Positions 1,055 to 16,774 of a stretch of DNA of 36,339 nt are shown in pieces. The notes under the pieces were generated by a model. The model had not been told where the DNA came from and searched no databases. It saw only the letters and a list, made by a program, of their open reading frames with translations. The stretch's first letter is position 1, and each line of letters begins with the position of its first letter. The stretch spans positions 1-36,339 of the forward strand of contig JAISBQ010000253.1 in assembly GCA_031266115.1 (NCBI GenBank), written 5' to 3'. This DNA is from Bifidobacteriaceae bacterium. Lineage in GTDB: Bacteria; Actinomycetota; Actinomycetes; Actinomycetales; WQXJ01. The position numbers and the translations under genes are program-made.

Positions 1055-2656
1055 TCATGAGGTCACCGCCGCTGGGTTGCGGCTCACGGCGTCGCCGTCG
1101 TGGGCGCGGCGCTGGCATGCGCGGATGTCACGGTCGCCGTTGACGGTGACCAGGCAGTCGAAGCAGACGCCGATGCCGCACAGGACGCCACGTGGGGCAC
1201 CTGACCGGGCTGTGCGCCACGCGCGATACCCGCCACCAAGCAGGATCCCGGCGACGGTCTGGCCAGCCCTGCCCCGCACGGCCTCGCCCTCGAACCGAAT
1301 GACGATGTCGCCGCCGCGCCGCGGTGATGCGGGTGCCCGCGGTCCGGAGCCCGGACCGATGTGGGGAGGCCGCGCGCGGGCCGGTGATGGAGGGCGTGCG
1401 GCCGTCGTCGTGGCGGCCGCGGCCGCGCTGAGCGACGGACGCTCGGGCGAGAACGGGGTGGGATCGATCGACGATCCGGCCGCGCTCGGCCTATCCGGCA
1501 AGCCGGCGCCGACCATCAACTCGGCCACCAGATCACCGGTGGCCGGTGCGAGACCGATCCCAGCGCCCTCGTGTCCGGTCGCGCACCACAGACCGGGTAG
1601 GCGATCGAAGCTTCCGATCACCGGCAGATGGTCCGGTACGAACGGGCGAAAGCCCAGGTAGGCACGCATAAGACCGACCTCGGCGAGGAAGGGAAACAGG
1701 GAGATCGCCCGGCGGGCGATCTCGGCGAGCACCATTGGGCGTAGGCCAGCGTCGAAGCCGACCTGTTCGCGGCTCGATCCGATCAGCACCGTCCCGGCGC
1801 GCGTCGATTCCACCACGGCGCTCACCCGCAACCCCGCGGCGGCGGACTGGGTCGCGGCCACGTAGTCGCCGTCGTACACCTTGTGCCGCACCCGCCGTGG
1901 CATCGGCATGGTGACCAGCACCATCCCACGCCGAGGGGACACGGGAAGGTCCACGCCGAGGCGCCGACCCACCTCACCGGACCATGGCCCGGCAGCGAGC
2001 ACCACACCGGCCGCTGACACATCTCCGGCCGTGGTTCGCACACCGCCAAGCCGTCCCCCACGCCCGCCGAGGGGCCCAGTCACCTCGACACCGGGGTGGA
2101 TAGTGGCACCGGCGCGGCGCGCCGAGGCCAGCAGCGCCTGGGTGGCGATCACCGGGTGAAGCTGCGCATCTTGCGGGTAGTGGACCGCCGCGACGATCCC
2201 GTCGGCCAGGTCCGGTTCGAGTTCCCGCCATCGGTCCTCGCTGAGGTTGACAGCGTCCACGCCGGCGCCCCGCCCGGCTCGGGCAAACTCACCCAGCCGC
2301 GCCGCACCGTCCTGCGAAGCGACGGCGACAATCCCGCCCTTGCGCTCAAACTCCAGGCCGGGGAACCTCGGGCCGAGTTCCTCGGCGAGCTCGGCGGCAA
2401 GCTCGGCCCAGCGACGCAGCGACACCAGGGCCATGTCGAGTTCGGGCCCAGGACCCTTGTCTGAGACGAGGAGATTGCCCTCACCGTGGGCGCTTGTCTC
2501 TGCCCCCGGCTGGCCCTTGTCGAGGACCGCGACGCCGACCCCGGCCCGCGCCAGCGCCCGGGCGCAGGCTGCCCCGACGATCCCCGCGCCGATGATCACG
2601 ACATCCACCGCTCGTGGAAGGTCCCCGGTGCCCCGCGCCAGAGCCAACCCGTCCAC
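1055..2656 (-). CDS. FAD-dependent D-amino-acid oxidase-family oxidoreductase (HcnC-like) fused to a C-terminal 2Fe-2S (HcnA/Fer2_4-like) domain
   Basis: Part of ORF 1055..2932. Motifs DVVIIGAGIVGAACA, GPGAETSAHGEGNLLVSDK, VVLAAGPWS, GFRPFVPDHLPVIG, ATGHEGAGIGLAPATG, then RGVLCGIGVCFDCLVTVNG...RAC. The first ~90 aa of the track ORF look non-coding; GTG 2656 is a best-guess start. Confidence 0.85.
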   Translation of the reverse strand: MDGLALARGTGDLPRAVDVVIIGAGIVGAACARALARAGVGVAVLDKGQPGAETSAHGEGNLLVSDKGPGPELDMALVSLRRWAELAAELAEELGPRFPGLEFERKGGIVAVASQDGAARLGEFARAGRGAGVDAVNLSEDRWRELEPDLADGIVAAVHYPQDAQLHPVIATQALLASARRAGATIHPGVEVTGPLGGRGGRLGGVRTTAGDVSAAGVVLAAGPWSGEVGRRLGVDLPVSPRRGMVLVTMPMPRRVRHKVYDGDYVAATQSAAAGLRVSAVVESTRAGTVLIGSSREQVGFDAGLRPMVLAEIARRAISLFPFLAEVGLMRAYLGFRPFVPDHLPVIGSFDRLPGLWCATGHEGAGIGLAPATGDLVAELMVGAGLPDRPSAAGSSIDPTPFSPERPSLSAAAAATTTAARPPSPARARPPHIGPGSGPRAPASPRRGGDIVIRFEGEAVRGRAGQTVAGILLGGGYRAWRTARSGAPRGVLCGIGVCFDCLVTVNGDRDIRACQRRAHDGDAVSRNPAAVTS

Positions 2657-3059
2657 CGCAAGGGAAGGGCCCGCCCGCTCGCGGGCGACCCGCCGGCCCT
2701 GGACCCGGTCCGTCGCTCCCGTGCGGTCTACCGCGTGTGCAGCAGGACCGGACGGTGTCACGCTGGGGCTCCTCGGATCGGGCCGGCCCCACCTCGAAGT
2801 GGGACGCCAACGACGCCCCAACCCTACTGCCCGCCCTGGTGGACTGGCGCGGGAGGCCTGGACCTCGGGTAGTTGGTGCCGAGTTGAGCCGTCGGGTAGC
2901 AAATCCTCCCTCCCGGGAGCCCAAACACTCAACTCGGCGGTCTGCGGAGCCCCCGGAGACGGCGAGTCCGAGGGTTCGAGTCGTGGATCCGGCGTTGTGA
3001 GGACTCAATGGCTCAACTCGGCAACCACCGTGCGTGGCCGGCGTGAGAGGCTAGTGGCG

Positions 3060-4886
3060 ATGTCCGTCTTCCGGCGCCAGCCGCGCCTTGACCTTAGTGT
3101 CGATCTCGCGCTACCCCTGGGGCCACAGTTCGCGCCGCACGCCGGCAGCGACCGGCTCGACATCGCCGTGCCCGATGCCGCAACTCTCCGGGCGCTGGCG
3201 TGGGCGGACCCGGACGTGTGGCACGGACACACCGTCGCGGTGCACATCGCCCCCTACACCCCGCCGGCTCCGGGGTGGCGCCCCAGGCTTCCCGCGCTCG
3301 GCACCCTCGCTGACTTCACCGTCACCCGCGACGACGCCGGTGGCGGGCTCACCCTAAGACTCACGTTGGCCGAGGCCGCCCCTCTCGCCGCGTTCGCCCA
3401 CGCGCTGGCTGGCGTGGCCGAACCGCTGCCCGCCCGTCTGGCTCAGGCGCGGGCCGCCATCGGCGTCGAGACGCCCGAGCCATTGACGCAAGCACCTACG
3501 GTGCTCGCTGTCCCGGATCCGGAGGGCGGCGACGCCTCGGACCCGACCGTGCCCCCCTGGGATCTGGTCGCCGACTTGGGTCAGGTCCCCGAACCCGGCT
3601 CGGATTCCCTCACCCGCGTGCATGTGCGCACCCCGCGGCCACTCGTCGACCTCACCGTCCACAACCCCGTGGGCAGACCCCCGTTCCGCGCAACCCGCCA
3701 GGCCAGCGCCACCATGGAGTCAGGCACCATACGCCTGACCCCGACGCCACCGTCGAGGCAGCGCGCCGCCGTGGCTCTCCCGGTGGATCGACCGCTCACC
3801 CGGCGGCAAGTCGCGTGGCTTCACCGCTGCGCCTCGTCCCTGGATTGCCGCGCCTTGACCCCCTCCACCGACGATGACGTCCCTCACGTGGCCGCCCGCC
3901 TCGCCGAGATCGCCGCCACGGGGACCGTGCTGCACGGGGTTCCGCGGCCTGCCACCCGGGGGCTCGACGAGGACCTGGCGACGATGATTGCCAGCCCTTG
4001 GTTCCCCGACAAGGCACTGGCCGTGGAAGGTGAGTTGCGCTCGGTCCGGGGGCGCCGACGGGCCCTGCAGGCCCATTCGCTGGCCGCCCGCTGGTTCGCG
4101 CCGGCCGATCCGGGGGCGCCCCCGCCGCTGGTGGCCGCCCCGGAAGTGTCGGTGGTCCTGGCGACGAAACGGCCGGACAACCTCGCGGTGATCGTGCCCC
4201 AGATCGCCGCCGAGTCCTATCCGCGTATGGAGATTCTGGTCGCCATCCACGGCGACGCCGAGGCTCCGGGCCTGCCCCAGCTCCAGGCTTGGGCGGGTGG
4301 CCGCCCGCTCCGTGCCGCCCGCTTCGCGCCGAGCGCCACCCTGGGGGAGATTCTGGGTCGCCTGTCGTCGATGGCTGACGGCCAACTCATCGCCAAGATG
4401 GACGATGACGATCGGTACGGTACCCATCACCTCGCCGATCTGGTGCTCGCCCAGGCGTACTCGCGGGCCGACATCGTCGGCATGGCGTTGTGGCACCGGT
4501 ATTACGTGGCGCGGAATCTGTCCACGGCGGCGAAGCGGCGAACCTCGGAGGGCTACACGCACTTCGTGCCCGGCGGCACCCTGACCATCACGCGCCAGGC
4601 GCTGAGCGAAGTGGGGGGGTGGCGGCCGGTGCCGCGTTCGGTGGATCGAGCGCTGCTGCAACGGGTGCAACGTCTCGGGGGGCTGGTGTATCGGACGCAT
4701 GGGTTTGGTTATGTCTACTGCCGTTACCCAGACGGACACACCTGGAACCCAGATGACGAGGCCGTGATCGCCAAGGCCGGCGACCGCTGGGCCGGCCCTG
4801 CACCCGTTCACCTGGAGATGCCGAACGCGTTCGACCAGGCGACATGCGTGGTGGCTCCGTGGGCTCGCCCAGTGGAATCGGGCTGA
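3060..4886 (+). CDS. Glycosyltransferase with C-terminal GT2/GT-A domain and uncharacterised N-terminal region
   Basis: 3' part of ORF 2247..4886; the upstream part is antisense to the DAO gene. Motifs PEVSVVLATKRP, YPRMEILVAIHG, LIAKMDDDDRYG (DxD), LSEVGGW. Start placed at ATG 3060. Confidence 0.8.
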   Translation: MSVFRRQPRLDLSVDLALPLGPQFAPHAGSDRLDIAVPDAATLRALAWADPDVWHGHTVAVHIAPYTPPAPGWRPRLPALGTLADFTVTRDDAGGGLTLRLTLAEAAPLAAFAHALAGVAEPLPARLAQARAAIGVETPEPLTQAPTVLAVPDPEGGDASDPTVPPWDLVADLGQVPEPGSDSLTRVHVRTPRPLVDLTVHNPVGRPPFRATRQASATMESGTIRLTPTPPSRQRAAVALPVDRPLTRRQVAWLHRCASSLDCRALTPSTDDDVPHVAARLAEIAATGTVLHGVPRPATRGLDEDLATMIASPWFPDKALAVEGELRSVRGRRRALQAHSLAARWFAPADPGAPPPLVAAPEVSVVLATKRPDNLAVIVPQIAAESYPRMEILVAIHGDAEAPGLPQLQAWAGGRPLRAARFAPSATLGEILGRLSSMADGQLIAKMDDDDRYGTHHLADLVLAQAYSRADIVGMALWHRYYVARNLSTAAKRRTSEGYTHFVPGGTLTITRQALSEVGGWRPVPRSVDRALLQRVQRLGGLVYRTHGFGYVYCRYPDGHTWNPDDEAVIAKAGDRWAGPAPVHLEMPNAFDQATCVVAPWARPVESG

Positions 4887-5109
4887 GGCGCGCACCACGC
4901 CACAGACCTCATGTCCACCACGTGAGCTAACCCTTGTCCGCCAAGGGGGTCAACCTCAGTGTCCGTCGCGGCTGGATCCCTCACTGGTAGGCTGGCGCCT
5001 CGTTGCCGGCTTGGTGGCCCTCGACATCGGTGCTCCCACTCGGCGCCAGATCGTCCTTGCCACCTCGTATCTCGCCAGTTGGCATCGCACTTGCTAAGGG
5101 AGCCGCGCA

Positions 5110-8100
5110 ATGCCGCCCAGCCCACGCCCACCGGCAGGCAAGTCCGACGCCGGCGCGCCGACCCGGCGGAGCCCCGAGCAGCGCCGCGCCCTGATCGCCA
5201 AGCTCTTCAACCCCCGCTGGTACGCGCGGCGCCGCTTCACGCCGGATGATGCGCCGGGCACGCCGTCGACGCCCGCCACGGACCTCGACTCCGGTCAGCT
5301 GCTCACGGATTACATCGAATGCGGTGCCGCGCTCGACCTCCCGCCACACCCCCTGTTCGATCCGGTGTGGTACCGCGCCCAGCGGCCGGACCGGGCCAAG
5401 GGTGAACTGCTCGTGGAGCACTATTTGTCGCGCGGCGCGCACCTGTCGCCACATCCGTGCTTCGACCCCGCGTCTCCCGCGGCGAAGGCCGCGCCGCCCG
5501 GGCGCAATCCGCTCCTGTACTACCTGCGCCACTCCGAAACATGGGGGCTTGCTCCCAATCCCTTGTTCGATGGCGCGCGCTACCTGCGCGAATCCCCGGA
5601 CGTCGCACAGGCCGGGGCTCATCCCCTGCTTCACTATCTCCGTGCCGGCCGGCGCGAAGGGCGCGGGACCTTCCCCCGGGTGGATTTGGCCCTCTTCAGT
5701 GCGGTGGCCGGCGGCGTCTCCCGGCAAGGCGCCTTGGTGGATTTCCTCAGCGCGCACCGGCCTTCGGCGGCGGTAGCCAAAGCCGAGATTCCCTTGGCCG
5801 CGATCGAGGAGCCCGCACGGACCGCCACCGCCTTAGAATCAGCGCGCTGGGCCTACACCGAGAAGGCTATTGTGCGCCGGGCGCGTCTCTACGCAGCGGT
5901 TGCCCCACTCTTCGATCCGGAGTGGTATGCCGCACAACGTTTTGGGCCCGACCTCGCCGGTGACCTTGGCGCGCTCGATATTGGGGCCGGTACCCTGCTC
6001 GACGATTATCTTCTGGTCGGTGCGGCGATGGGCCTCGCCCCTCACCCGCTGTTCGATCCACGCTGGTATGCCGGTCGTGTGGGTCATATCCCAGAGAACA
6101 TGGTGGCGGTGGAACACTATCTGACCCATGGTGCGGCCATCTCACCGCACCCCGCCTTCGACCCCACATCGCCAGCAGCCAAGGCCGCTCCCGATGGCGC
6201 AAATCCCCTCGTCCACTATCTGACTCACCCGCAGACGTGGCGCCTGGCACCCAACGACCTTTTCGACGGTGACTATTACTTGGACACGTATTCCGACGTC
6301 ACCTTGGTCCAGATGAATCCGCTCGTCCACTATCTGCTGTATGGGGAGGCCGAAAAGCGTTCTCCTTCACCGCGGTTCAGTCCTGAAGTCTACCGGGGAA
6401 TGGTGGCGGTCCCGGCCGGAGAAAACACCGTCGTCTATTGCCTGCGGCAGCGCGGCGGAGACGATTCTCCCAATACCGAAGGAATCGCGTTCGCGGTGCA
6501 CGAGAGACCGCTCGTGTCGATTGTCATTCCGGTGTACGGCCATTGGGCGCATACCCGTGCCTGTCTCCTCGCGTTGGCCGCCTCGGATCCGGAGCCCAGC
6601 TTCGAAGTGATCGTTGTCGACGATGCCGGTCCGGACCACACCGCTGACCTCCTGGCCGGCGCATCGGGGGTGACGGTGATCCGTCACGAGACCAACACCG
6701 GCTATGTGGGCGCCTGCAACACGGGAATCGCCGCCGCCCGCGGCACCTATATTGCGCTCCTCAATAACGACACCCGTGTCGCCCCAGATTGGCTGGCCCC
6801 CCTGGTGGAAACACTGACGGACGATGGCGTAGGGCTAGTGGGCGCGAAACTCATCTATCCCGACGGTCAGCTTCAAGAGGCCGGCGGGATCATTTTCTCC
6901 GATGGTTCCGGATTCAACTATGGCCATGGCCATCCAGCGGCGAACTCGGAGTTCAATTACCGGAGAGTTGTCGACTACTGCTCGGGAGCCGCCATCGTTG
7001 TCCGCGCCTCGATTCTGCATGAGTTGGGTGGCTTGGACGAGACCTTCGCCCCCGCGTACTACGATGATACAGATCTGGCATTCGCCGTGCGCGCTGCCGG
7101 CTATTCGGTGGTCTACGATCCGCGCGCGGTGGTGATTCACGACGAGGGCGTATCCCATGGCACGGACGAGTCGACAGGAATCAAAGCCTATCAGGTGGTC
7201 AATCAACTCAAGTTCCGGGAAAAATGGGCCGGAGTCTTGACGTGGCAGCTACCCCCCGCACCTGAATTGGTTGAGCGCGCCGCCCGCGCGCATCAGGGGC
7301 GAGACCTCGTTGTGGTGATCGACCACCTCATCCCCGACCCGAATGAGGATTCTGGCTCTGTGAGAATGACCGGGCTGATCAAGGAGTTGATTCGCCAGGG
7401 GCATGGAGTCCTCTTCATTCCGCACCTACCACGAGTCGGCACACGTGAGGGTGCCGCGCTGCGCGCGATGGGCGTGGAAGTCGCCTACGGTCCCCACGAT
7501 TGGCCCGAGTTTCTCGCGGCGCTGGATGGATCAGTCTCGGCGGTGATCGTATCGCGAATTCCCACAGCCCTCGCGTTCGCCCCCGTGGTCCGAGCGGCCT
7601 TGCCGGGGGTTCCGTTGATCTTCGACACGGTGGACCTACACTTCCTGCGGCTCGAACGCGAGGCCGGCATCGCGCCCACACCTGGCGCTCTAGCCGCCGC
7701 CAGCCTGACCCGCGAGTTGGAATTGGCCATGATCCGGGCGAGCGAGACCACCTTGGTGGTCTCGCAGGTGGAGAGGGACTTGTTGGCTCCATTGGTCCCC
7801 GAGGCCAATATCCAGGTCCTGTCGAATGTGCACGAGCGCCTCGCCGATGAAGCGATCGCCGGCGTTGAAGGCCGCGACGGCATAGTCTTCGTGGGTAGCT
7901 TCGCCCACACTCCCAACCAGGACGCGGTGCGGTGGTTTGTCGCCGAAGTGCTGCCGCTCGTCCGCCGCACGCTCCCTGACATGCCGGTACGCATTGTCGG
8001 CAAGAACCCACCAGACATCCTGATCGACGAAGCGCCTCCCGGCGTCGAGTATCTCGGCTGGGTTGAGAGTCTCGCGGGAGTCTATGCTTCGGCCCGGATG

Positions 8101-8412
8101 GCGATCGCGCCGCTGCGGTATGGAGCCGGAGTCAAGGGCAAGATCGGCGAGGCCATGGCCTTCGGGATCCCGGTCATCACCACGTCGGTGGGCGCGGAGG
8201 GTATGGGGCTCGAGGACGGCAAGACCGCGATGGTGGCCGATTCTGCAGAAGGGTTCGCGGCCGCCATCGTCCAGATGGACTCGGACGATGCCCTGTGGCG
8301 GCGCGTGGCGCGCGACGCGCGCGAGCATGTGGACCGCACCCTCGGCACCGCCCGGTTCGCCGAGGTGTTGCGCGATGTGATCACTCCGCCAGGCCAGCTT
8401 GGGGGGCGTTGA
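5110..8412 (+). CDS. Multidomain glycosyltransferase: N-terminal FDxxWY/HYL repeats + GT2 + GT4-like domain (surface polysaccharide synthesis)
   Basis: 1100-aa ORF with GGGAG upstream of the ATG. GT2: PLVSIVIPVYG, EVIVVDDAGPD, NTGYVGACNTG, ALLNNDTRV, YCSGAA, APAYYDDTDL. GT4-like: FVGSFAHTPNQDAV, APLRYGAGVKGKIGEAMAFGIPVITTSVGAEG. Confidence 0.92.
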   Translation: MPPSPRPPAGKSDAGAPTRRSPEQRRALIAKLFNPRWYARRRFTPDDAPGTPSTPATDLDSGQLLTDYIECGAALDLPPHPLFDPVWYRAQRPDRAKGELLVEHYLSRGAHLSPHPCFDPASPAAKAAPPGRNPLLYYLRHSETWGLAPNPLFDGARYLRESPDVAQAGAHPLLHYLRAGRREGRGTFPRVDLALFSAVAGGVSRQGALVDFLSAHRPSAAVAKAEIPLAAIEEPARTATALESARWAYTEKAIVRRARLYAAVAPLFDPEWYAAQRFGPDLAGDLGALDIGAGTLLDDYLLVGAAMGLAPHPLFDPRWYAGRVGHIPENMVAVEHYLTHGAAISPHPAFDPTSPAAKAAPDGANPLVHYLTHPQTWRLAPNDLFDGDYYLDTYSDVTLVQMNPLVHYLLYGEAEKRSPSPRFSPEVYRGMVAVPAGENTVVYCLRQRGGDDSPNTEGIAFAVHERPLVSIVIPVYGHWAHTRACLLALAASDPEPSFEVIVVDDAGPDHTADLLAGASGVTVIRHETNTGYVGACNTGIAAARGTYIALLNNDTRVAPDWLAPLVETLTDDGVGLVGAKLIYPDGQLQEAGGIIFSDGSGFNYGHGHPAANSEFNYRRVVDYCSGAAIVVRASILHELGGLDETFAPAYYDDTDLAFAVRAAGYSVVYDPRAVVIHDEGVSHGTDESTGIKAYQVVNQLKFREKWAGVLTWQLPPAPELVERAARAHQGRDLVVVIDHLIPDPNEDSGSVRMTGLIKELIRQGHGVLFIPHLPRVGTREGAALRAMGVEVAYGPHDWPEFLAALDGSVSAVIVSRIPTALAFAPVVRAALPGVPLIFDTVDLHFLRLEREAGIAPTPGALAAASLTRELELAMIRASETTLVVSQVERDLLAPLVPEANIQVLSNVHERLADEAIAGVEGRDGIVFVGSFAHTPNQDAVRWFVAEVLPLVRRTLPDMPVRIVGKNPPDILIDEAPPGVEYLGWVESLAGVYASARMAIAPLRYGAGVKGKIGEAMAFGIPVITTSVGAEGMGLEDGKTAMVADSAEGFAAAIVQMDSDDALWRRVARDAREHVDRTLGTARFAEVLRDVITPPGQLGGR

Positions 8413-8455
8413 CCCGACCTCGGCTGATGTCACTCGCTCGTCCCCAGTGGGTCGT

Positions 8456-8500
8456 CTTGCCTCAAACGGGATGGTTGACTTGCCTCAAACGGGATGGTTG
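8456..8500 (+). repeat. Perfect 22-bp tandem direct repeat (CTTGCCTCAAACGGGATGGTTG x2), probable operator
   Basis: Copies at 8456-8477 and 8479-8500, separated by one A. The second copy ends on the GGAGG RBS of the ATPase gene. Confidence 0.9.
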
Positions 8501-8511
8501 GAGGCCAAGAC

Positions 8512-9783
8512 GTGACTGAGTACCTTCCACGAATTCTTGATGCCAGCCTCGCGGAAGTCCTTGCCTCACTGCCCGCCGTCGCCGTCGATGGCGCCAAAGC
8601 GGTGGGGAAGACCTCGACTGCCAGCCGCGTCGCACGTTCGCTGTTTGCCCTGGACAGCGAACCAACTGCGGCGAGCGTCCGTCTCGACCCCGCACTGCTC
8701 GCCCAGGCCGCCCACCCCGTGCTCATCGACGAATGGCAGCGTGTCCCATCCGTGTGGGACTGGGTGCGCCGTCAGGTCGATGCCAGTGCAGCCCCCGGGC
8801 AGTACATCCTGACCGGCAGCGCGGTTCCTCGTGGCGCCAGCGTTCACTCAGGCGCCGGAAGGATGGTTCGGCTGCAGATGCGACCGTTGTCGCTGGCGGA
8901 ACGCGGTATCGCCGAACCACGCCTTAGCGTCGCGGATCTCTTGATGCAGCCGGATGCCGCTATCCGCGCTCACACGGATGTCACACTGCGTGACTACGTC
9001 CGCGAGATCACGGCCTCAGGCTTTCCAGGAATCCGTGCCCACACGCCCACGAGCCGCCCACGGTTGCTGGACGGGTATATCGCGACGATCGTTGACCGTG
9101 AGGTTCCCGAGCAGGGCACGATGGTGCGTCGGCCTCAGGCACTGCGCAGCTGGTTGCGCGCTTATGCCAGAGCGACAGCAGGCACGGCGCGCTACGAGAA
9201 GATCCTCGATGCTGCCGTGCCCGAGCAGGGCGATAAGCCAGCCAAGAGCACGGCCGCCGCCTACCGTGACACGCTCGCCTCACTGTGGCTCCTGGATCCC
9301 GTGCCGGCGTGGACGCCCGAAGGGTCAGGGCTGAAGAGGCTCGGAAGGACGCCGAAGCATTTCCTCGTTGATCCGGCGATCGCCGCGCGCCTGCTGCGTC
9401 TGACTGAGGCGCGTCTGCTGACCGAGGCCGGACCGGTGCCGCTGGGGCCGCAAAAGGGGGCGATCCTCGGCCGCCTCTTCGAGGCACTCGTCGGTCTCAG
9501 CCTCCACACCTACGCGCTCAGCGCCGGCGCCGAACTATTCCACTTGCGAACCCATGATGGATCCCGCGAGATCGACTTCATCGTCGAGGGCGACGACGCC
9601 ATCATCGCCGTTGAGGTCAAGCTGTCTGCCACCCTCGACGATCACGACGTGCGCCACCTCAACTGGCTGGCCGGCGCGTATCGCGACCGCCCCGTCGCCA
9701 AGATCGTCGTCACCGCGGGGGAGTTCGCCTACCACCGCCCCGACGGCGTCCAGGTGGTCCCCGCCGCCCTCCTCGGACCGTAG
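8512..9783 (+). CDS. AAA+ ATPase (AAA_14) with DUF4143 and C-terminal PD-(D/E)xK-like region
   Basis: YLPRILD N-terminus, Walker A GAKAVGKTST, Walker B VLIDEWQ, YILTGS, HSGAGR, TPKHFLVDPA, GRLFEALV, REIDFIVE...AVEVKLS. GTG 8512 follows GGAGG. Confidence 0.9.
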   Translation: MTEYLPRILDASLAEVLASLPAVAVDGAKAVGKTSTASRVARSLFALDSEPTAASVRLDPALLAQAAHPVLIDEWQRVPSVWDWVRRQVDASAAPGQYILTGSAVPRGASVHSGAGRMVRLQMRPLSLAERGIAEPRLSVADLLMQPDAAIRAHTDVTLRDYVREITASGFPGIRAHTPTSRPRLLDGYIATIVDREVPEQGTMVRRPQALRSWLRAYARATAGTARYEKILDAAVPEQGDKPAKSTAAAYRDTLASLWLLDPVPAWTPEGSGLKRLGRTPKHFLVDPAIAARLLRLTEARLLTEAGPVPLGPQKGAILGRLFEALVGLSLHTYALSAGAELFHLRTHDGSREIDFIVEGDDAIIAVEVKLSATLDDHDVRHLNWLAGAYRDRPVAKIVVTAGEFAYHRPDGVQVVPAALLGP

Positions 9784-9861
9784 GGTGACCCGGCGCCCGG
9801 TTGTCGCCTGTGATCCGCTTTCCGATCAGGGCCAGCGCGCTTGGCGCAGGGGGCACACGAG

Positions 9862-9867
9862 TAGTCT
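9862..9867 (+). promoter_or_regulatory. Putative -10 element (TAGTCT) of a leaderless HEPN-ParA transcript
   Basis: TAnnnT hexamer 6 nt before GTG 9874, with no Shine-Dalgarno sequence in between. Confidence 0.5.
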
Positions 9868-9873
9868 GGCCCG

Positions 9874-10314
9874 GTGACCTCCACTCGCGTCCATGTCTCG
9901 TTCCGGGAGCTTCGCAGGGCGGTAAGGCACCATGAGGCCGCCGCAGCGCAGATCACGCCTCGCGGCAACCGCTCTGCGATGCTCCTTCTCTTCTACGCGA
10001 CCGAGTGCGCGCTCAAGGCAGTCGTGCTACGCCAAAGGAACGCCGCGTCGACCGAAGCGCTTGACGATTCACTTCGCAGTCACGATCTCGGTGCGCTGAC
10101 GAAGTCGTTGCGAGTCTCTGCCGAAGTTGGCCGCGATGTGGAGGCGACGTATGATCGTCGGGCCAATCAGGGGCGTCCCATGCCCAAGGTCTCGTTGGCT
10201 CGGACTCATGAGGTGTGGCGCTATGGCGCCAACCTGACCGACGACTCGAACGCTCGCGTGAAGGTCTTACTTGACCGGCTGAGGGATTGGGCCAGAAATG
10301 AGTTGTCGTTATGA
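9874..10314 (+). CDS. Small helical HEPN-like protein
   Basis: 146 aa. LLLFYATECALKA (HEPN ExxLKA), RSHDL, and HEVWRYG near the C-terminus match the HEPN motif order. The stop overlaps the next ATG (ATGA 10311-10314). Confidence 0.7.
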   Translation: MTSTRVHVSFRELRRAVRHHEAAAAQITPRGNRSAMLLLFYATECALKAVVLRQRNAASTEALDDSLRSHDLGALTKSLRVSAEVGRDVEATYDRRANQGRPMPKVSLARTHEVWRYGANLTDDSNARVKVLLDRLRDWARNELSL

Positions 10315-13001
10315 CGCCGTCGCCTGAGCCGATCACCTTTCCCGATCACATCTTTACCTGGATCGACTTGGATGATCACATGGCTGCGCTGGCCTCAGAT
10401 GGCCTGTGGCCAAAGTGGCTGCACGAGTGGAGCGCATACTGGGACTCCGCCGAGATGACCGTTGAAGCGGACACTGAGCCGAACGTCATTGCGACGTGGT
10501 TGGAGGGTTCGCTTGGGCCTCTGTCGGTCCGTGCGGCGGCGCAGGGCGTCTATCAGGTTCGGCTCGACAGCCCACCTGACAGTCCCGGGCGCTGGCTTGA
10601 TCTTCGGATCGCCGAGGGCTCGCGCCCGGTTCCCGCTAGGGTTCCCCGCTGGGGGGTTTCCCGCATTACCTCCTCGTTGGCTGACCCGCTTCCCGAGCCG
10701 GGCGAGGCGTTCCCCGGGGGCGTTCAGGTGGTTGCGACCCACTCCTTCAAGGGAGGGGTTGGCAGGACGCTCCATGCCGTCGCTCTGGCCAAGGCGCTTG
10801 CGGAACGCACTGGCGTGCTCTTGGTGGACGCCGACCTTGAAGCACCGGGCATTTCGTGGATGCGCCCCGGCTCCGCGAGCCAGTCCGACTTCAGCTTCGA
10901 GGACTATCTCGCCATCCTCCACGCCAGCCCCACTGGCTCCTTCGACGAGGCTGTGGCCATAGCGCTGCCCTACCTTGCTGGACAGTCAGTGGGAGGCATC
11001 ACCGTCCTGCCGACCCGCCGAGACCTCGCCCGTCTACGTCCCCCACTTCTGGAGCCACTCAATCTGGTTCAGGGAGCATCGAATCCCTACCGCCTGACCG
11101 AGTCGATCGCTGCCCTCGCCGACGCACTGGGGGCGAAAGTGGCGATTGTCGATCTGCGTGCGGGTATCAGCGAACTGTCCTCACCGATACTCCTCGATCG
11201 CCGTGTGCAAAAGCTGCTTGTCACCAGTGCCAGCGCACAATCGCTGGCCGGCACCCGAATGGTCGTGCGCCAACTCTCACGGCTAGCACCGCTCCGCTCG
11301 GACGATCCGCTGCCCAAACTCCTCGTGACACAGTATCGGGAACGAGAAACCGAAGCCCTTGAGTACGAGCTTGGTCCCGTTGTCGAAGAACTCGGCCATA
11401 TGCGCTTTACGGGGGACGACGATTTGTCCGATGCCGCGGCGATTGGTCTTGCACTCGAACCGCTCATGAGCCCTTTCAGAGAGGACCTCCTGCAACTCCC
11501 TGAGCGCTGGACTCATGTCCTGATCCGGATCCAAAAAGTCGGCTTGTCCAGCGTCATGGACCAGTTCGCCGAGGATCTAGCCAGCAGCCTAGATTCGTCG
11601 GATGAGACGCTATCCACGGTACAGATACTCGATCAGAAAGATCGTCGACAGGCACTAGCTGATCACGCCGACAAGCTCGTCCATGCAGAAGGTGAGACGG
11701 GCGATGGGTTCCTCGCCACCACGTCGCTGCGTCGCCTGGTCAATGCGCATCGGGAACAGCTTCCGCTATGTTTGGTCGTCGGGAAGAAGGGTGCTGGTAA
11801 GACCTTTGCCCAGCTCCAGATGATTTATGCGGGAGACTGGCGGGCCTATGCTCGCCTTGTCCTTCCAGGGTCATCCGCAAGAGATGCGACCGTTGTCCCT
11901 GTACTGACATCTGCAAACTTGGGAGATGCAACACGACATCGAATCGACGAGGCAAACCCGGACAGGAATGTGCTTGATCGCGTATCGCGTGCGCGCGAAA
12001 CGATCGGCGACTATCTTTCTACAGAAGCCTCCGAGGCCGATTGGCGTAGACGGTGGCTTACCCTCTTGGCCCGCTCAATCGATTGTGGCGATGTCGACGA
12101 GGCTGATGTCGAGTCAAGATTTCCCGACATCGTGAAAGGCCGACGTGTCGTCTTTGTTATCGATGGCATTGAAGATGCGTTCCAAGAAGTCGAGGATGAG
12201 CCTCAACAGCAGCAAGGACTTCGTGCCCTCATCACCGGAACACTCGACTGGCTGCGCCGCCTTCCCGGCGGACAAGTGGGGCTGATCGTCTTTGTGCGTG
12301 AAGATCAGGTCCGCGCCGCCTTCAAGCAGAACTCCGATCAGCTACTGGCTAGATATCAGGACTATGCGCTGTCGTGGGACCGTGAAGAAGCTGTGCGGTT
12401 GGCCTATTGGATCACGCAAGTCGCTGACCGCAATCCTAAGACTCTGACCTCAGAAGAGTCGGAGCTGATCCAACGCAAGACGTTGGAGGACCTCACAGGG
12501 GATATGCTTCCTATCTGGGGTGAGAAGATGGGAACGACCAAGTCGAGGAAGGCCAGGTCGCTGAAATGGGTATTGGCCGTCCTATCAGATTTCAATGGTG
12601 ACATTCAGGCTCGGGACGTGGTTCGCTTCTTGGCTGAGGCCGCGGACGCATCGGCGAAAGAAAGAGGATGGGCAGATCGCATCTTGACACCCGGCGGAAT
12701 GCGACGCGCAGTGAAACCCTGTGGTGATATGAAGATCCGCGAGATTAATGAAGAGATGCCAAAGGCGCGTAAGGCACTGGCGCAACTCGGGGCTATCCCT
12801 CAAAATGACCGGAAGATACCATTGGCAGTGAACCTTTATCTGGCCGCTGACCAGGTCGCGCTGTTGAAGGACGTGGGGCTAATCTGGACCAACGAGGAGG
12901 GCATGTGGATGACCGAGTTGGTCAGGGAGGGTCTGGGCTTTAGGTCATCGGGTCGCGGACTCCCGCGGGTGCTGGGGGTCGCGGAGCAGGCCGGCCGCTG
13001 A
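10311..13001 (+). CDS. ParA/MinD-like ATPase (KGGVGR variant) fused to a second P-loop NTPase domain
   Basis: 896 aa. HSFKGGVGRT (~10740-10770), LLVDADLEAPG, IVDLRAG; second Walker A VVGKKGAGKT (~11775-11804), Walker B VFVIDGIED (~12150-12176), LIVFVRED. Confidence 0.88.
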   Translation: MTPSPEPITFPDHIFTWIDLDDHMAALASDGLWPKWLHEWSAYWDSAEMTVEADTEPNVIATWLEGSLGPLSVRAAAQGVYQVRLDSPPDSPGRWLDLRIAEGSRPVPARVPRWGVSRITSSLADPLPEPGEAFPGGVQVVATHSFKGGVGRTLHAVALAKALAERTGVLLVDADLEAPGISWMRPGSASQSDFSFEDYLAILHASPTGSFDEAVAIALPYLAGQSVGGITVLPTRRDLARLRPPLLEPLNLVQGASNPYRLTESIAALADALGAKVAIVDLRAGISELSSPILLDRRVQKLLVTSASAQSLAGTRMVVRQLSRLAPLRSDDPLPKLLVTQYRERETEALEYELGPVVEELGHMRFTGDDDLSDAAAIGLALEPLMSPFREDLLQLPERWTHVLIRIQKVGLSSVMDQFAEDLASSLDSSDETLSTVQILDQKDRRQALADHADKLVHAEGETGDGFLATTSLRRLVNAHREQLPLCLVVGKKGAGKTFAQLQMIYAGDWRAYARLVLPGSSARDATVVPVLTSANLGDATRHRIDEANPDRNVLDRVSRARETIGDYLSTEASEADWRRRWLTLLARSIDCGDVDEADVESRFPDIVKGRRVVFVIDGIEDAFQEVEDEPQQQQGLRALITGTLDWLRRLPGGQVGLIVFVREDQVRAAFKQNSDQLLARYQDYALSWDREEAVRLAYWITQVADRNPKTLTSEESELIQRKTLEDLTGDMLPIWGEKMGTTKSRKARSLKWVLAVLSDFNGDIQARDVVRFLAEAADASAKERGWADRILTPGGMRRAVKPCGDMKIREINEEMPKARKALAQLGAIPQNDRKIPLAVNLYLAADQVALLKDVGLIWTNEEGMWMTELVREGLGFRSSGRGLPRVLGVAEQAGR

Positions 13002-13055
13002 TCATTGGGGCGGGCGACCGCCGACAAAGTCGCGTCTTGACCCGCGAGGACGCGC

Positions 13056-14054
13056 TCACACTCGCGGCGGGGCAACCTGCGAGGCGGATTCCTGATCCTG
13101 GGCCTCGCCAGCGGCCGGGGCGTACTGCATCTGCTTGATCCGCTCCAGCGCGTCCTCCAGCAGGGCACGGTTGGAGCGTTGCAGATCGGCAATCACGAGC
13201 AGTGCGAAGCACAGCAACGACCCGGTGAGCATCGCCGTACCGAAGACCAGGGATTGGATATGGCCGTCTGGGGATCCGGTCACCCAATAGTACAAGAACC
13301 GCGCAAAGGGCAAGAGCCCAGCAACTCCCAGCACGGCACCTATGGTGGCGAACACCATGTACGGCTTGTACATGACATAGGAACGGGCAATGGCTTGTCC
13401 GGACTTCACCATGTGTTGCCCAATGTTCTTGAACAACCGCGATTCGCGTGTCTTCGGATTCGTCGTGATGGGAATGCTCGCGATCCGCAAACGCTTGTTC
13501 CCCGCCTGGATGATGGTCTCCATGCAGTAGCTGAACCTGGTGATGATGTTGAGTCGCATCAGGGCGCCGCGAGAATAGGCGCGAAATCCGCTGGCGGCAT
13601 CGGGCAACGCGGTCCCGGCGGCCGCATTGACCACGTAACTCCCAATCCTCTGCATCGCCTTCTTCACGGGCGAAAAGTGGGAGATGGTCGCAGTTTGGCG
13701 ATCCCCAACCACACGCTCGGCCTGACCCCTCAGTATCGGCTGAATCAGATCGCCGATCCTCGCCTGCGGATATTGGTCGTCTCCGTCGGTGTTGACCACG
13801 ATGTCGGCCCCGTGGGCGAGAGCGTAATCCACGCCGTCGCGAAAGGCTCGCGCCAGACCCATGGTGCTGGTGTGGCGAACAACGTGGACCACGCCGAGAT
13901 TCCGGGCCACCTCGGCCGTCCGGTCAGTCGAGCCATCGTCGATCACCAGAATTTCCACCGTGTCCACGCCGTCGATGCGCCGGGGGATGGTGGCCAGCAC
14001 GTGCGGCAGAGTCGCCTCCTCGTTGAGGCATGGGATCTGAACAAAGAGCTTCAT
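13056..14054 (-). CDS. GT2 glycosyltransferase, polyprenol-phosphate glycosyltransferase/DPM1-like, with two C-terminal TM helices
   Basis: MKLFVQIPCLNEE, EILVIDDGSTDRT, IVVNTDGDDQY, PDAASGFRAYSR, and two hydrophobic segments. AGGA upstream favours ATG 14054; a TAGACT -10-like hexamer lies at 14085-14090. Confidence 0.92.
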   Translation of the reverse strand: MKLFVQIPCLNEEATLPHVLATIPRRIDGVDTVEILVIDDGSTDRTAEVARNLGVVHVVRHTSTMGLARAFRDGVDYALAHGADIVVNTDGDDQYPQARIGDLIQPILRGQAERVVGDRQTATISHFSPVKKAMQRIGSYVVNAAAGTALPDAASGFRAYSRGALMRLNIITRFSYCMETIIQAGNKRLRIASIPITTNPKTRESRLFKNIGQHMVKSGQAIARSYVMYKPYMVFATIGAVLGVAGLLPFARFLYYWVTGSPDGHIQSLVFGTAMLTGSLLCFALLVIADLQRSNRALLEDALERIKQMQYAPAAGEAQDQESASQVAPPRV

Positions 14055-14134
14055 CGGCATTCCTGGTGTGGGTTTGACCCGGCAAGTCTAGGGCGGCGCT
14101 GCGGGCCGCGCCATCGCCCGCCGCCCTCGGGCGG

Positions 14135-15352
14135 TCAGCGGGTCCGGGCGAGCTGGTCGAGGACGAGACCAGCAACCTGGTCTGCACACGGGCGATCACC
14201 CGGGCGAACGCCCTCGCCGGGCACAGTGATCCACTCCCGCGCGAAAGCACGAGCGTCCTCCTCGGTACTTGCCCCACCGACGATGGCGTCCATCAGCTCA
14301 CCCGGATCGCTCACCACCGGGAACGGAGTCTCGCGGGCGATGTCGGTGTACAGGCCGCGGTCCCGTCGGTACGCCTCCAGGTCCGGGGCGAAGAAGTAGC
14401 AGGGCACGCCGAGCAGTGCCGCCTCGAACACCGCCGAGGAATAGTCGGTGGCGAATGCCGAGGCCACCGAGGCCAGCTCGGCCGTCGTGAACCCGTCGGC
14501 GCTGCGGACTCCGCGGACGGCGGGCGCCAACGGGTGCCGCGAGTGGATCAGGGTCAACCCTCGGCTCGCCGCAGCGCGGGCCAAGGCGGCGACATCGGGC
14601 GGAGTGGATCGGCCCGGGCGGTGAGTGGGGGCATAGAGGACTATCGTGCGTCCCTCCAGGTCGGGGTAGGCCGCCAGGATGCGCCGGCGCACGGACTCAC
14701 GCGCGCGGGGGTCAAGGAGCAGATCCACCCGTGGTAGGGGGGCGATCGCGATCCGCTCACGCACAACACGGAACGCCGAGGCATATGGGTCGCGACACCG
14801 TTCGGAACTCACGAGCACCATGTCATAGCCCCGATGCATCCTCCCGGCCTCGGCGATGGCGCGAGATCGGCCGTCCGGCATCCCCACGGCATCCCATCCG
14901 AACCACTTCAACGCCCCCAACGCGTGCCACAGCTGGACCGTGCGCAGGCGCTGTCCCCAGCTCACGCCGGATACGACGGGCGAATACGTGTCCACCACCA
15001 CCACTCGTGCGGTCGCCGCGAGACGCAGTTGGGCCAGGGTGCCCGCCGAGAACCGCAGCCATCCCCGCAGACCTGGGGTTTGGAAACGGGCATCGACCAT
15101 CACGTCGAGCCTCGGATCCCGCCGCCACAAGGCCTCACGCAGGAGGCGAAAGTCTTCCGGCTCCCCGACCTGTTCGCGCGATAGCATCACCACCCGCCGC
15201 CGTGGCCGACACCCCACGCGAACCATCCAGCCCGCTGCCTGGAGACCGACCTGCATGAGCCGCGCAGGCACAACGCTCCCGGCTACGCGCATACGCTGCC
15301 GCAGCCCCCGCGCGGCTCTGGCTCTCCCGTGAGCCACGCCCCGACCCCTCAC
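14135..15352 (-). CDS. CDP-glycerol/ribitol:polyol-phosphate transferase family protein (TagB/TagF-like)
   Basis: VVVDTY, VQLWHALGALKWFG, LPRVDLL, IVLYAPTHR, HSRHP, ATDYSSAVFEAALLGVP. The GTG start overlaps the upstream TGA (GTGA); the true start may be somewhat downstream. Confidence 0.88.
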   Translation of the reverse strand: MRGRGVAHGRARAARGLRQRMRVAGSVVPARLMQVGLQAAGWMVRVGCRPRRRVVMLSREQVGEPEDFRLLREALWRRDPRLDVMVDARFQTPGLRGWLRFSAGTLAQLRLAATARVVVVDTYSPVVSGVSWGQRLRTVQLWHALGALKWFGWDAVGMPDGRSRAIAEAGRMHRGYDMVLVSSERCRDPYASAFRVVRERIAIAPLPRVDLLLDPRARESVRRRILAAYPDLEGRTIVLYAPTHRPGRSTPPDVAALARAAASRGLTLIHSRHPLAPAVRGVRSADGFTTAELASVASAFATDYSSAVFEAALLGVPCYFFAPDLEAYRRDRGLYTDIARETPFPVVSDPGELMDAIVGGASTEEDARAFAREWITVPGEGVRPGDRPCADQVAGLVLDQLARTR

Positions 15353-16614
15353 CGTTCACCCCCGATGGGCGCACCCGCCAGGATCAGGCGTTCGGTGATC
15401 CGCCGGGTCGAACGCCCATCGCAAGCGGAGGCGAACTCGGCGAGAAAAGGCGCCAGGACGTCATCGTCCATGGTGGCGGACCTGATCGCCGCCGCCAAGC
15501 CACGCGATTCAGCGACCACCGGCCCGATGAGATACCGCTCGAACGGCCGGTAGAAGTCGCGGCTCACCGTGTATTCATCCAGGTCAGGCGCAAAAAACAC
15601 GATGGGCCGCCGCAACAGAGCGGCCTCGAAGATCGACGAGGAGTAGTCGGTCACCAGGGCGTCGGCGGCGATGAGCAACTCCGTCATCTCGCGTTCATCG
15701 GTGACGTCAATCAAGCCCGGCACTCGCGCCTCGGGCGCGAGTGACCCGACAAAGGGATGCATCTTGACCACGAGCGTCCACTCGGGGGCAAGATCCCGGA
15801 CCAGGCCGGCCCAGTCCACCCAGGACGCGTCGTAGTGGGCGGTCCGCTCCCCGTGGCCCCGGAACGTCGGCGCGAACAGGACAATCTTCGAGCCGGCCGC
15901 CACGCCGAATCGTGCGCGGACGCGAGCGCGGGTGGCGGCGACGGCATCGGTGTCGAAGAAGGCGTCGGTGCGCGGCACGCCCAGCGCATGCACCCGCGTG
16001 CGGGGAATCCCGAAGGACTCGGCGACGTCGGCGCGGACGCCCTCGGCGCTGGCGGTCGCCCAGGTGTAGTTGCGGTGGATGCGCGAACCCGGCACCGGGC
16101 CGCCCGGCAGACCCGCCCGCGAATGACCAACCCGCTTGAAGGCGCCCACGGCATGCCACACCTGGCCGAGCTCGGTCTCGGGACGCAGGGTGACGTGGTA
16201 GATCATCGGGTAGAAATCGTCGAGGACTATCACGCGGCTGCGCGCCATCACCGCAGGCAAGCCCAACGCCTGACGTAGCGAGCGCAACCCTCGGCCCGAC
16301 GCCCGCAACACCGGGACCACCCGCGTCGACGGAGACTGCCTGGCGATCTCGTCGCGCAGATCGGCGAGGTTCCCGGTGAGCTCGCCGCGTGAATCGGACA
16401 GGAACGCCACCTGCCGCGGGTCCACCTGAATGAGGCGCCGGGCGAACGCGTAGGCGGCGATGTAGTACCAGTAGCGCCACCGTGCGGCGAACAGACTCCG
16501 GCGGACGATGGCGCGCACCACCTGCGCCGGACCCATCCGGATGGCGCGGGCGGCCAGGTGCCCTACGCTCTCGTGACGCTCATCGTCACCGGGGCGACGT
16601 CGCCGTGCTCCCAT
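15349..16614 (-). CDS. tarL: CDP-ribitol/glycerol phosphotransferase, TarL/TarK-like teichoic acid polymerase
   Basis: FLSDSR..LTGN, LDDFYPMIY, QVWHAVGAFKRVGHSRAG..GGP, GVPRTD, LFAPTFRGHG..TAHY, KMHPFV, TDYSS, RDFY, DGRST. These match the S. aureus TarL motifs as I recall them. Start at 16614 or 16626. Confidence 0.85.
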   Translation of the reverse strand: MGARRRRPGDDERHESVGHLAARAIRMGPAQVVRAIVRRSLFAARWRYWYYIAAYAFARRLIQVDPRQVAFLSDSRGELTGNLADLRDEIARQSPSTRVVPVLRASGRGLRSLRQALGLPAVMARSRVIVLDDFYPMIYHVTLRPETELGQVWHAVGAFKRVGHSRAGLPGGPVPGSRIHRNYTWATASAEGVRADVAESFGIPRTRVHALGVPRTDAFFDTDAVAATRARVRARFGVAAGSKIVLFAPTFRGHGERTAHYDASWVDWAGLVRDLAPEWTLVVKMHPFVGSLAPEARVPGLIDVTDEREMTELLIAADALVTDYSSSIFEAALLRRPIVFFAPDLDEYTVSRDFYRPFERYLIGPVVAESRGLAAAIRSATMDDDVLAPFLAEFASACDGRSTRRITERLILAGAPIGGER

Positions 16615-16774
16615 GCGCCGCAGCATCCCTTCTGTCGTGCCGTCGATACCCCACGCCGGCCCCACCCTACTTGGCTGGATGGTCGCTCCGTTCGCCCGCG
16701 GGCCCACGCGATGTCGGAAGTCGTTGACCCGTGGGCTGGTACGGACGGATGAGGCGTCCGAGGCGGATGTGACG

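Follow-up and report, generated by a model that had tools for sequence, protein, structure and literature searches.

A gene pair in a Bifidobacteriaceae contig as a divergent member of the HINPO / PDC-M28 candidate defence systems

The closest described counterpart of the gene pair treated here is HINPO (HEPN, inactive NTase, ParA, ORC/CDC6, where NTase stands for nucleotidyltransferase), a system named by Li, Burroughs and Aravind in a preprint of 22 Oct 2026 (bioRxiv 10.64898/2026.10.19.760177). As set out in that preprint, a ParA ATPase of the ConB2 clade is fused to a fast-evolving N-terminal domain of the Pol-beta fold that is judged inactive; the ParA gene is flanked upstream by a gene for a new type of HEPN protein (PA-HEPN1) and downstream by a gene for an AAA+ protein of the ORC-CDC6/STAND type, and the ParA and AAA+ genes are “in several cases ... 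directly fused”. The ConB2 clade has an arginine in lieu of the Walker A lysine and a PG motif after sensor-1. The primary action proposed for HINPO is multimerisation of ParA guided by the ORC-CDC6 component, with HEPN as a backup. The same authors propose that the inactive HEPN domains of an archaeal ParA system act as RNA binders, and they report that HINPO is enriched in multicellular bacteria. We describe here a two-gene unit at positions 9874-13001 of a stretch of 36,339 bases from a Bifidobacteriaceae bacterium (contig JAISBQ010000253.1, assembly GCA_031266115.1). This stretch, referred to below as the window, is one entire contig out of the 408 that make up a 3.0-Mb draft genome. The unit is very probably a HINPO system in its fused form.

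The two genes and the parts of gene 2 are as follows.

9874..10314, + strand: gene 1, GTG start, 146 residues; predicted HEPN fold of the PA-HEPN1 / HEPN-T-like type
10311..13001, + strand: gene 2, ATG start, 896 residues; predicted NTase-fold domain, ParA domain (KGGVGR variant) and Sll1717 / STAND / ORC-CDC6-like P-loop nucleoside triphosphatase (NTPase)
10311..10724, + strand: predicted NTase-fold domain (the “iNTase” of HINPO), gene 2 residues 1-138, Trp-rich; from an AlphaFold2 model, VIA-align and Foldseek
10722..11276, + strand: ParA/MinD-like core, gene 2 residues 138-322 (domain ~138-440); KGGVGRT with Arg152, DLEAPG
11661..13001, + strand: second P-loop NTPase and helical C-terminal region, gene 2 residues 451-896; Walker A and B
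11781-11804, + strand: Walker A GKKGAGKT, gene 2 residues 491-498; G491-T498 invariant
12150-12176, + strand: Walker B VFVIDGIED, gene 2 residues 614-622; D618 invariant

A preliminary description of this locus had proposed a two-gene unit with ATGA coupling, and both open reading frames are indeed present at these coordinates, with an ATGA at 10311-10314 in which the end of gene 1 overlaps the start of gene 2. The motifs on which it had relied are all present as well. Those of gene 1 (ECALKA at residues 44-49, HDL at 70-72 and RY at 116-117) are invariant or nearly so in 56 homologues, and in gene 2 the core residues of FKGGVGRT (146-153), GKKGAGKT (491-498) and IDGIED (617-622) are invariant in 22 full-length homologues.

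It is clear that the unit resembles HINPO in several respects: a small HEPN gene lies upstream, the ParA domain carries an N-terminal domain of predicted NTase fold, the arginine and the PG motif of the ConB2 clade are both found, and a second NTPase is fused. Furthermore, the relatives of the pair occur mainly in filamentous actinomycetes and cyanobacteria, in line with the enrichment claimed in the preprint. The predicted HEPN and NTase folds, obtained from sequences alone, agree with the structural claims made there. The window copy differs in being divergent; its best identity to any relative is 44% for gene 2 and 39% for gene 1, and 40 sampled relatives of the host lack the gene 1 family. 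The preliminary description had been unable to match the unit to a named system, and had itself treated such a match as refuting its novelty. The architecture matches that of HINPO and the two NTPase modules also match PDC-M28, so that part of the description does not stand.

PDC-M28 is one of the PDC families of PADLOC, which were gathered by “guilt by embedding” in BREX, DISARM or type I restriction-modification systems (Payne et al., bioRxiv 10.1101/2024.01.29.577857). It consists of three separate genes: A encodes a protein of ~140 residues with the same ECxxKA helix as gene 1, B an N-domain followed by a KGGVGR ParA, and C a Sll1717-like P-loop NTPase. When both genes of the pair were run against PADLOC, a check that had been suggested earlier, the B and C models each matched gene 2, and in the right order. 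The PDC-M28B model (PDLC04559) matched residues 138-325 with E 2.2e-15 and 54.7 bits, where the canonical copy scores 359 bits; the PDC-M28C model (PDLC04561) matched residues 717-827 with E 2.2e-10 and 38 bits, over profile positions 294-396 of 480, where the canonical copy scores 481 bits. A canonical copy was met with as the one strong match in 201 genomes of the phylum searched with the C model (genome G054, 482 bits), in which A (93 bits), B (359) and C (481) follow one another head to tail, with PglW of a BREX-2 system (1462 bits) on one side and its PglX (1652 bits) on the other:

L089 (G054:C1:5592000-5608000), ~6767-10091 within the BREX-2 stretch 2236-14058, - strand: canonical three-gene PDC-M28, between pglW and pglX

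Gene 2 of the window is 32% identical to canonical B over 201 residues (the ParA core) and 22% identical to canonical C over 253 residues (E 3e-6). The window differs in having B and C fused as one open reading frame of 896 residues, as do at least 72 of the 80 homologous loci compared below, and in not being embedded in BREX, DISARM or type I restriction-modification; its neighbours are a PDC-S01 gene and glycosyltransferase genes. On these comparisons PDC-M28 appears to be the split, three-gene form of the HINPO architecture. This equivalence, together with the embedding in BREX-2, goes beyond what was found in print, as do the HEPN-T class of the HEPN partner and the conserved leaderless-type promoter described below. 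In those parts of the main text of the HINPO preprint that were searched, PADLOC and MNT are unmentioned (“MNT” has 0 occurrences) and BREX is named for another system only. A literature search did not find the name PDC-M28, and returned nothing relevant on KGGVGR or Sll1717 either.

The earlier reading of gene 2 as a ParA/MinD domain fused to a second NTPase is borne out by curated models. NCBIfam NF047398, the “KGGVGR-motif variant” AAA ATPase, matches gene 2 with 145.9 bits against a cut-off of 90, and Pfam CbiA with 28.2 bits against a cut-off of 25.4. Arg152 stands in place of the Walker A lysine, and across 22 homologues neither K147-T153 nor P179 G180 varies. The canonical Walker A, KGGxGK[ST], is not present, and the ParA_partition and MinD models reach 11-22 bits against cut-offs of 180-213. 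No Pfam ParB-family match occurs among the 19 window proteins scanned, in agreement with the lack of a parB context noted previously. A classical role in ParA partition or MinD positioning was rejected on these three grounds, namely Arg152 for lysine, models far below cut-off and ParB not found among these 19 proteins.

The second NTPase has its own invariant Walker A and B motifs. The family models that match the C-terminal half of gene 2 do so below their curated cut-offs: NF047389, the Sll1717 family, gives 43.5 bits (cut-off 75), Pfam AAA_16 an E of 0.011 and NACHT an E of 0.015. Its nearest clusters in the ESM Atlas, by features and structure, include P-loop ATPases of the Sll1717 family; nSTAND1 is the label on 19% of one neighbouring cluster (TM, template modelling score, 0.90) and an ORC-CDC6-like label occurs on 13% of another (TM 0.76). 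A profile of the C-terminal half compared with PDB sequences returned no relevant solved structure.

Several points weigh against the reading of the pair as a HINPO / PDC-M28 defence system. HINPO is itself a purely computational description (10.64898/2026.10.19.760177), and the PDC set consists of 145 untested candidates. The PDC-M28A model (PDLC04558) matches gene 1 with an E of only 0.025, and only 3 of 56 members of the gene 1 family at E<=0.01. Comparison of the gene 1 family with canonical PDC-M28A by hhalign gave probabilities of 9% and 25%, the latter over just 38 columns, and no alignment was returned between the N-domain family of gene 2 and the N-domain of canonical PDC-M28B. Finally, the putative ORC-CDC6/STAND assignment of the C-terminal half draws on Pfam matches below threshold and on Atlas labels carried by 13-19% of cluster members.

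The two genes are found together well beyond this contig. In a set of 8000 scored candidates gene 2 has 193 relatives at E<=1e-3, and of the 120 matches listed almost all have 880-930 residues. Homologues occur in 335 genomic stretches of a collection with one genome per species. The best 80 of these stretches were fetched for comparison of the loci. In 77 of the 80, a homologue of gene 1 (phmmer, E<=1e-3, all open frames) immediately precedes the gene 2 homologue in the same orientation, and in these its end always falls at the start of the gene 2 homologue or slightly within it; usable start codons for the gene 1 homologue are present in 76 of the 80. The three loci without a match are L072, where the E value is 0.056, L020, whose contig starts within gene 2, and L070, which has none. 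Pairing of this kind is far beyond chance. The best 80 loci come mostly from Streptomyces, Streptosporangiales, Micromonospora and Frankia, with some from filamentous cyanobacteria (Symploca, Caldora; e.g. L069), and because they span many actinomycete genera as well as these cyanobacteria the association must be old as well as conserved. Conserved pairing had been named as a point to check in the preliminary description, and it is plainly seen (76-77 of 80 loci). A search for shorter, split forms of the C-terminal half of gene 2 gave 4 proteins, mostly on short contigs, and thus gave no evidence of a close split form.

A word-based homologue search with gene 1 returned only the gene 1 protein itself, and its family was recovered through the loci instead. 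In a library of 1.84 billion proteins, a profile made from 56 members then matched 705 cluster representatives (E<=1e-3); the 150 matches listed are 92-307 residues long, and mostly 130-145. Among the closer relatives of the source genome the family was met with in 0 of 40 (2 from its own genus, 16 from its family and 22 from its order; completeness 67-100%), and across the phylum in 2 of 301 sampled genomes, the source genome included, a count that may be low in that just 13 candidates per genome were scored. The G+C content is 0.58-0.64 over 10-13 kb of the window and 0.62-0.68 from ~6 to 14 kb, compared with ~0.70 in most of the window. Taken with the low G+C content, these counts characterise the pair as a horizontally acquired accessory module in this genome.

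The start of gene 1 was placed at the GTG at 9874. A gene caller gave a version of only 111 residues that begins at Met36, but homologues of 136-140 residues start aligning at residue ~5 of gene 1 and the GTG is therefore preferred. With this start, gene 1 is separated from the upstream open reading frame (8494..9783) by 90 bases, within which lies a promoter-like element:

9862-9867, + strand: -10-like hexamer TAGTCT, ending 6 nt before the GTG; candidate promoter of a leaderless transcript

Of 70 distinct regions upstream of gene 1 homologues, in which 40 nt were examined, 44 have a TANNNT hexamer whose end stands 6 nt (27 cases), 7 nt (6) or 8 nt (11) ahead of the start codon; all other offsets together account for just 5. 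In actinobacterial promoters a hexamer at this position is the expected look of the -10 element of a leaderless transcript, and the comparison supports a conserved promoter of this type. In the other 26 regions the start may have been misassigned or there may be an ordinary leader. A leaderless-type promoter had been proposed for the window from the first; the comparison upholds it, whereas a generic sigma-70 scan shows no site upstream of gene 1, which tells against it. The same scan and a terminator scan gave nothing above chance, with one site inside gene 1 (1 found, 0.8 expected). The near-identical sequence agTAGTCTGg stands ~15 nt before the start both in the window and in several Streptomyces-type loci (e.g. 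L065, L060, L037 and L062). By sequence comparison the promoter element itself appears to have been kept across distant hosts. The pair is probably co-translated through the ATGA overlap, from a transcript that is probably leaderless.

The protein encoded by gene 1 had been called HEPN-like. An AlphaFold2 model built from a 56-sequence alignment is a helical bundle (pLDDT, the predicted local distance difference test, 87.2; pTM, the predicted template modelling score, 0.84), and the top five structures returned by VIA-align (Z 8.9-10.8) are all classical HEPN proteins:

1ufb: Z 10.8, 113 aligned, root mean square deviation 3.1
2hsb (AF0298): Z 10.2, 116 aligned, root mean square deviation 3.8; second-best match
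3o10 (sacsin HEPN): Z 9.7, 115 aligned, root mean square deviation 3.1
1wol: Z 9.6, 111 aligned, root mean square deviation 3.2
4nqf: Z 8.9, 117 aligned, root mean square deviation 3.2

Further down the list stand AbiA, HepT-type toxins, Csm6, AbiV and others, and the solved HEPN toxins 5yep (Z 7.1), 7ae2 (Z 6.9) and 8xdj (Z 7.0) are also among the matches. Because Z values of this size can arise by chance between helical bundles, sequence evidence for a HEPN fold was sought as well. When 81 diverse members of the gene 1 family were aligned with 28 proteins of PF05168 by hhalign, the two families matched with 81.9% probability (E 1.1e-5) over 87 columns; the 28 proteins were taken from genomes of the same phylum, and two loci from unpublished genomes were left out. 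The alignment pairs E44..K48 with EKALKA, H70 with the His of H-x-L and R116-Y117 with RY of PF05168. PF05168 is listed as the HEPN-T, or nucleotidyltransferase-associated, family by Anantharaman et al. 2013 (PMC3710099). Some results speak against this assignment: the Z of ~10 is within the chance range for helical bundles according to the tool's own note, Foldseek returns the same HEPN proteins with weak E values of 0.045-0.5, gene 1 has no Pfam match and does not reach the gathering threshold of PF05168 (HEPN), which is matched by just 2 of 56 relatives (best E 0.004), and the family profile gave no HEPN entry and only chance-level rows against PDB sequences. The model, the five structural matches and the alignment to PF05168 nevertheless agree with one another, and they identify gene 1, as far as modelling and sequence comparison can, as a HEPN-fold protein of the nucleotidyltransferase-associated HEPN-T type.

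The first 138 residues of gene 2 had been described as an unknown Trp-rich domain, and the unit as having no nucleotidyltransferase (MNT, minimal nucleotidyltransferase) partner for its HEPN protein. Neither statement holds in that form; the domain models as a Pol-beta nucleotidyltransferase fold, so that an NTase-like partner would be present after all. The AlphaFold2 model of residues 1-138 (pLDDT 88.0) has a helix, two strands, a helix and three strands, and W17, W33, W36, W44 and P130 are invariant. The best VIA-align match is CdnC (6p80, Z 6.6, 89 aligned, root mean square deviation 3.1), together with the small alarmone synthetases 6fgk (Z 5.8) and 5dec (Z 5.4), and the 50 rows are mostly NTases, including other CD-NTases, MenT toxins, aminoglycoside NTases, TUTases and OAS. 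In Foldseek the first 50 matches are without exception to DNA polymerase beta or lambda, with E values of 0.021-0.088 and probabilities that reach 0.95. These scores are modest and the argument for the fold lies in the agreement of the two methods and in their unanimity.

Catalytic NTases carry a G[GS] signature and an acidic trio. Among 65 N-domains, G[GS] is present in 3 and the acidic trio at 39, 41 and 86 occurs together in 38, with Ser41 in the window copy; no strictly conserved catalytic signature was found in these sequences, using general motif definitions and no residue-level superposition. There is separate conservation at residues 19-21, 39-48, 69-72 and 86 (window 10365-10570), with acidic residues at D19 (98%), position 21 (97%), D45 (100%) and position 86 (100%), and an FGxGS stretch lies at 68-72 (G69 95%); the order of these elements departs from the customary G[GS]...DxD arrangement.

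How the parts would work together can be proposed from these assignments. We consider it fairly probable that the pair is a defence system with the HEPN protein as its effector. Sensing of a cue from the invader, probably foreign DNA, would fall to the STAND/ORC-CDC6-like NTPase at the C-terminus, helical tail included, and its nucleotide-dependent assembly would be passed to the ParA domain, which as a member of the arginine-for-lysine clade would be an ATP-dependent dimerising or multimerising switch. The NTase-fold domain would either bind a nucleotide-like ligand or hold the HEPN protein. Complex prediction for this domain and the gene 1 protein gave scores of 0.15, 0.35 and 0.01 against a mark of 0.32, and counts neither for nor against binding. 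Once freed or activated, the HEPN protein would cut or bind RNA through an alternative site formed by His70, His112 and Arg116, and the infected cell would stop growing or die (abortive infection), with HEPN as the effector or a backup effector. A sensor-switch ATPase controlling a HEPN effector in abortive infection had also been suggested in the preliminary description. The same logic is proposed in the HINPO preprint, which favours that suggestion; the absence of the RNase motif in its canonical form tells against the effector part of it.

The Ex3[KR] motif of the HEPN superfamily is present in gene 1 as E44-x3-K48. The Rx4-6H motif is missing: R116 is followed by YGANLTD, with no conserved His 4-6 residues further on in the 56 or the 81 sequences. 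Since this canonical motif is absent, the HEPN protein could be non-catalytic, a binder of RNA or of nucleotides, and this counts against an effector role. The corresponding alternative is that HEPN is a non-catalytic sensor of RNA or nucleotides and that the effector is the ParA/AAA+ protein, which would polymerise on the invading DNA and block replication or packaging without killing the cell. The preprint leans in this direction in putting ParA multimerisation first and HEPN as a backup, with inactive HEPNs as RNA binders elsewhere, and Anantharaman et al. 2013 (PMC3710099), who also note the Ex3[KR] motif in HEPN proteins, allow for non-catalytic HEPNs. On the other hand, in the 81 diverse members, whose mean column identity is 31%, E44, H70 and R116 never vary and conservation of K48, H112 and Y117 is at least 90%, a pattern more typical of an active site. 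The conserved histidines, H70 and H112, precede R116. In AF0298 (2hsb) and AbiV the motif His is likewise missing, and an alternative active site could be made up of a conserved upstream His and the basic residue of the motif (PMC3710099); gene 1 fits this description of an AF0298-type His/Arg site point by point. The alternative with a non-catalytic HEPN and a ParA/AAA+ effector is for these reasons unlikely, and nuclease activity of gene 1 is plausible. The RNase toxin that had been proposed for gene 1 stands to the extent that such an alternative site is available, as in HEPN-T proteins, and falls short in that it must be argued in the absence of Rx4-6H.

An origin among toxin-antitoxin modules also has to be weighed. 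HEPN-MNT pairs (HepT/MntA type VII; HEPN-T with a minimal NTase) resemble the unit in that a small HEPN is encoded next to an NTase-fold domain. They differ in that the window pair has the HEPN gene first and the NTase-fold domain fused to two NTPases, and in that its HEPN lacks Rx4HxY and its N-domain a conserved catalytic signature. The unit could then be a toxin-antitoxin module derived from a HEPN-MNT pair, in which the NTase antitoxin has lost catalysis and become fused to two NTPases, and which stabilises a mobile island or brings about dormancy under stress. HEPN-T is the nucleotidyltransferase-associated class (PMC3710099) and is here coupled to a protein that begins with a predicted NTase fold, and the module is patchy in distribution and foreign in composition, all of which would suit such a module. 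However, the best structural matches of the N-domain are CD-NTases and alarmone synthetases rather than minimal NTases, and the preprint calls this domain distinct from MNT (10.64898/2026.10.19.760177). Plain addiction would hardly account for two large NTPase modules, relatives of the pair lie within or beside BREX-2, and no flanking integrase or transposase turned up, although no search was aimed at them. A plain toxin-antitoxin module is consequently doubtful, to about the same degree as the non-catalytic HEPN.

A related suggestion is compatible with the defence reading favoured above, and may be offered tentatively, as a minority possibility. Because the HEPN is of the HEPN-T class and its gene is translationally coupled to one whose product has a predicted NTase fold at its start, the N-domain may be a degenerate antitoxin of the MNT type, a proposal not made in the main text of the preprint. 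HINPO would then be a domesticated HEPN-MNT toxin-antitoxin pair, the N-domain physically clamping the HEPN-T toxin rather than sensing a nucleotide, and the ParA and STAND/ORC NTPases providing a two-step, DNA-triggered release. If true, the result would be a sensor-gated device for abortive infection, and it would account for the HEPN gene coming first, for the ATGA coupling and for the leaderless co-expression.

Other described systems share the general principle of a P-loop NTPase switch coupled to a nuclease-type effector, namely the STAND defence proteins (Avs / nSTAND) and ParA conflict systems; of the latter, ParA-HeH with a HEPN anticodon nuclease is reported to be antiphage in Salmonella (per 10.64898/2026.10.19.760177). 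The pair differs from these systems in that its effector is a separate protein, that gene 2 has no C-terminal repeat sensors (such as TPR or WD40), that it has two different NTPases in series, and that its ParA is of another clade than that of ParA-HeH.

The following genes lie on either side of the pair and, for the last two, further along the window.

5110-8412, + strand: glycosyltransferase fusion (GT2+GT1), 1100 residues, upstream of the pair
8494-9783, + strand: AAA_14 + DUF4143 ATPase, 429 residues, PADLOC PDC-S01 (E 3.6e-76), directly upstream of the pair
13056-14060, - strand: GT2 glycosyltransferase, downstream of the pair
14135-16707, - strand: two CDP-glycerol glycerophosphotransferases, downstream of the pair
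26196-26597, - strand: PIN-domain open reading frame (VapC-like), 133 residues, beside the giant protein
26888-36271, - strand: 3127-residue protein with Listeria-Bacteroides repeats (Flg_new, 591 bits) and Big_2, probably a giant surface protein

The PDC-S01 gene and the HINPO pair are thus two candidate defence systems side by side. The AAA_14/DUF4143 gene was considered as a third component and rejected, not being a neighbour in the 22 other loci scanned. The pair is seen to be inserted in a wall-glycopolymer cluster, and the lowered G+C content (0.62-0.68) takes in the whole of 6-14 kb; since it extends beyond the pair, the island may include surface-polymer genes.

For the flanks of homologous pairs, three crude gene calls on each side of 22 loci (132 proteins) were searched with PADLOC at E<=1e-5, with no background control. 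At least one match was obtained in 13 of the 22 loci. In L019 the fused pair lies one gene from pglX-pglW; PglZ (PF08665) was not found in that genome and this pglW-pglX pair therefore cannot be called a complete BREX-2. L076 has a type IV restriction enzyme (241 bits) and a mad3-like ATPase; other defence-type flanks are a mad3/AriA-like ATPase (L062), a BrxHI-like helicase (L071) and a NERD/UvrD helicase (L050), and candidate families occur beside L004 (PDC-S48 and PDC-S03) and L042 (PDC-S07). Against a role in defence it must be set that 9 of the 22 loci have no PADLOC match at all, that many of the matches are generic and carry little weight (Ser/Thr kinases, helicases, methyltransferases, helix-turn-helix proteins, a hydrolase), and that, PDC-S01 apart, the neighbours in the window are glycosyltransferases and teichoic-acid-type enzymes rather than defence genes. 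The defence-gene neighbourhood is suggestive rather than a demonstrated enrichment. No neighbour is conserved across the 22 loci, and the two genes therefore make up the whole unit.

A housekeeping role in positioning or assembly, in which the ParA/MinD ATPase would localise a wall-polymer or secretion machine and take no part in conflict, is very improbable: the pair does lie between glycosyltransferase and CDP-glycerol glycerophosphotransferase genes in the window, ParA/MinD proteins classically position cargo and the database names of relatives include “BcsQ” and “MinD-like”, but the neighbours vary across the 22 loci, the gene 1 family is not found in the 40 relatives and the composition is foreign, no ParB is seen among the 19 window proteins scanned, and known positioning systems leave no room for a coupled HEPN protein, an NTase-fold domain or a STAND-like NTPase.

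The unit is therefore best described as a divergent member of HINPO / PDC-M28, a named and computationally described system, and not as a new kind of system. HINPO / PDC-M28 is widespread, with 335 stretches in species-representative genomes and 705 clusters of the HEPN partner, and is known from computation alone. It joins two different NTPase switches to a HEPN protein without the textbook RNase motif, and thus bears on the part played by ParA-type ATPases in immunity, on the gating of an effector by two NTPases in series, and on HEPN proteins of the AF0298 type as nucleases.

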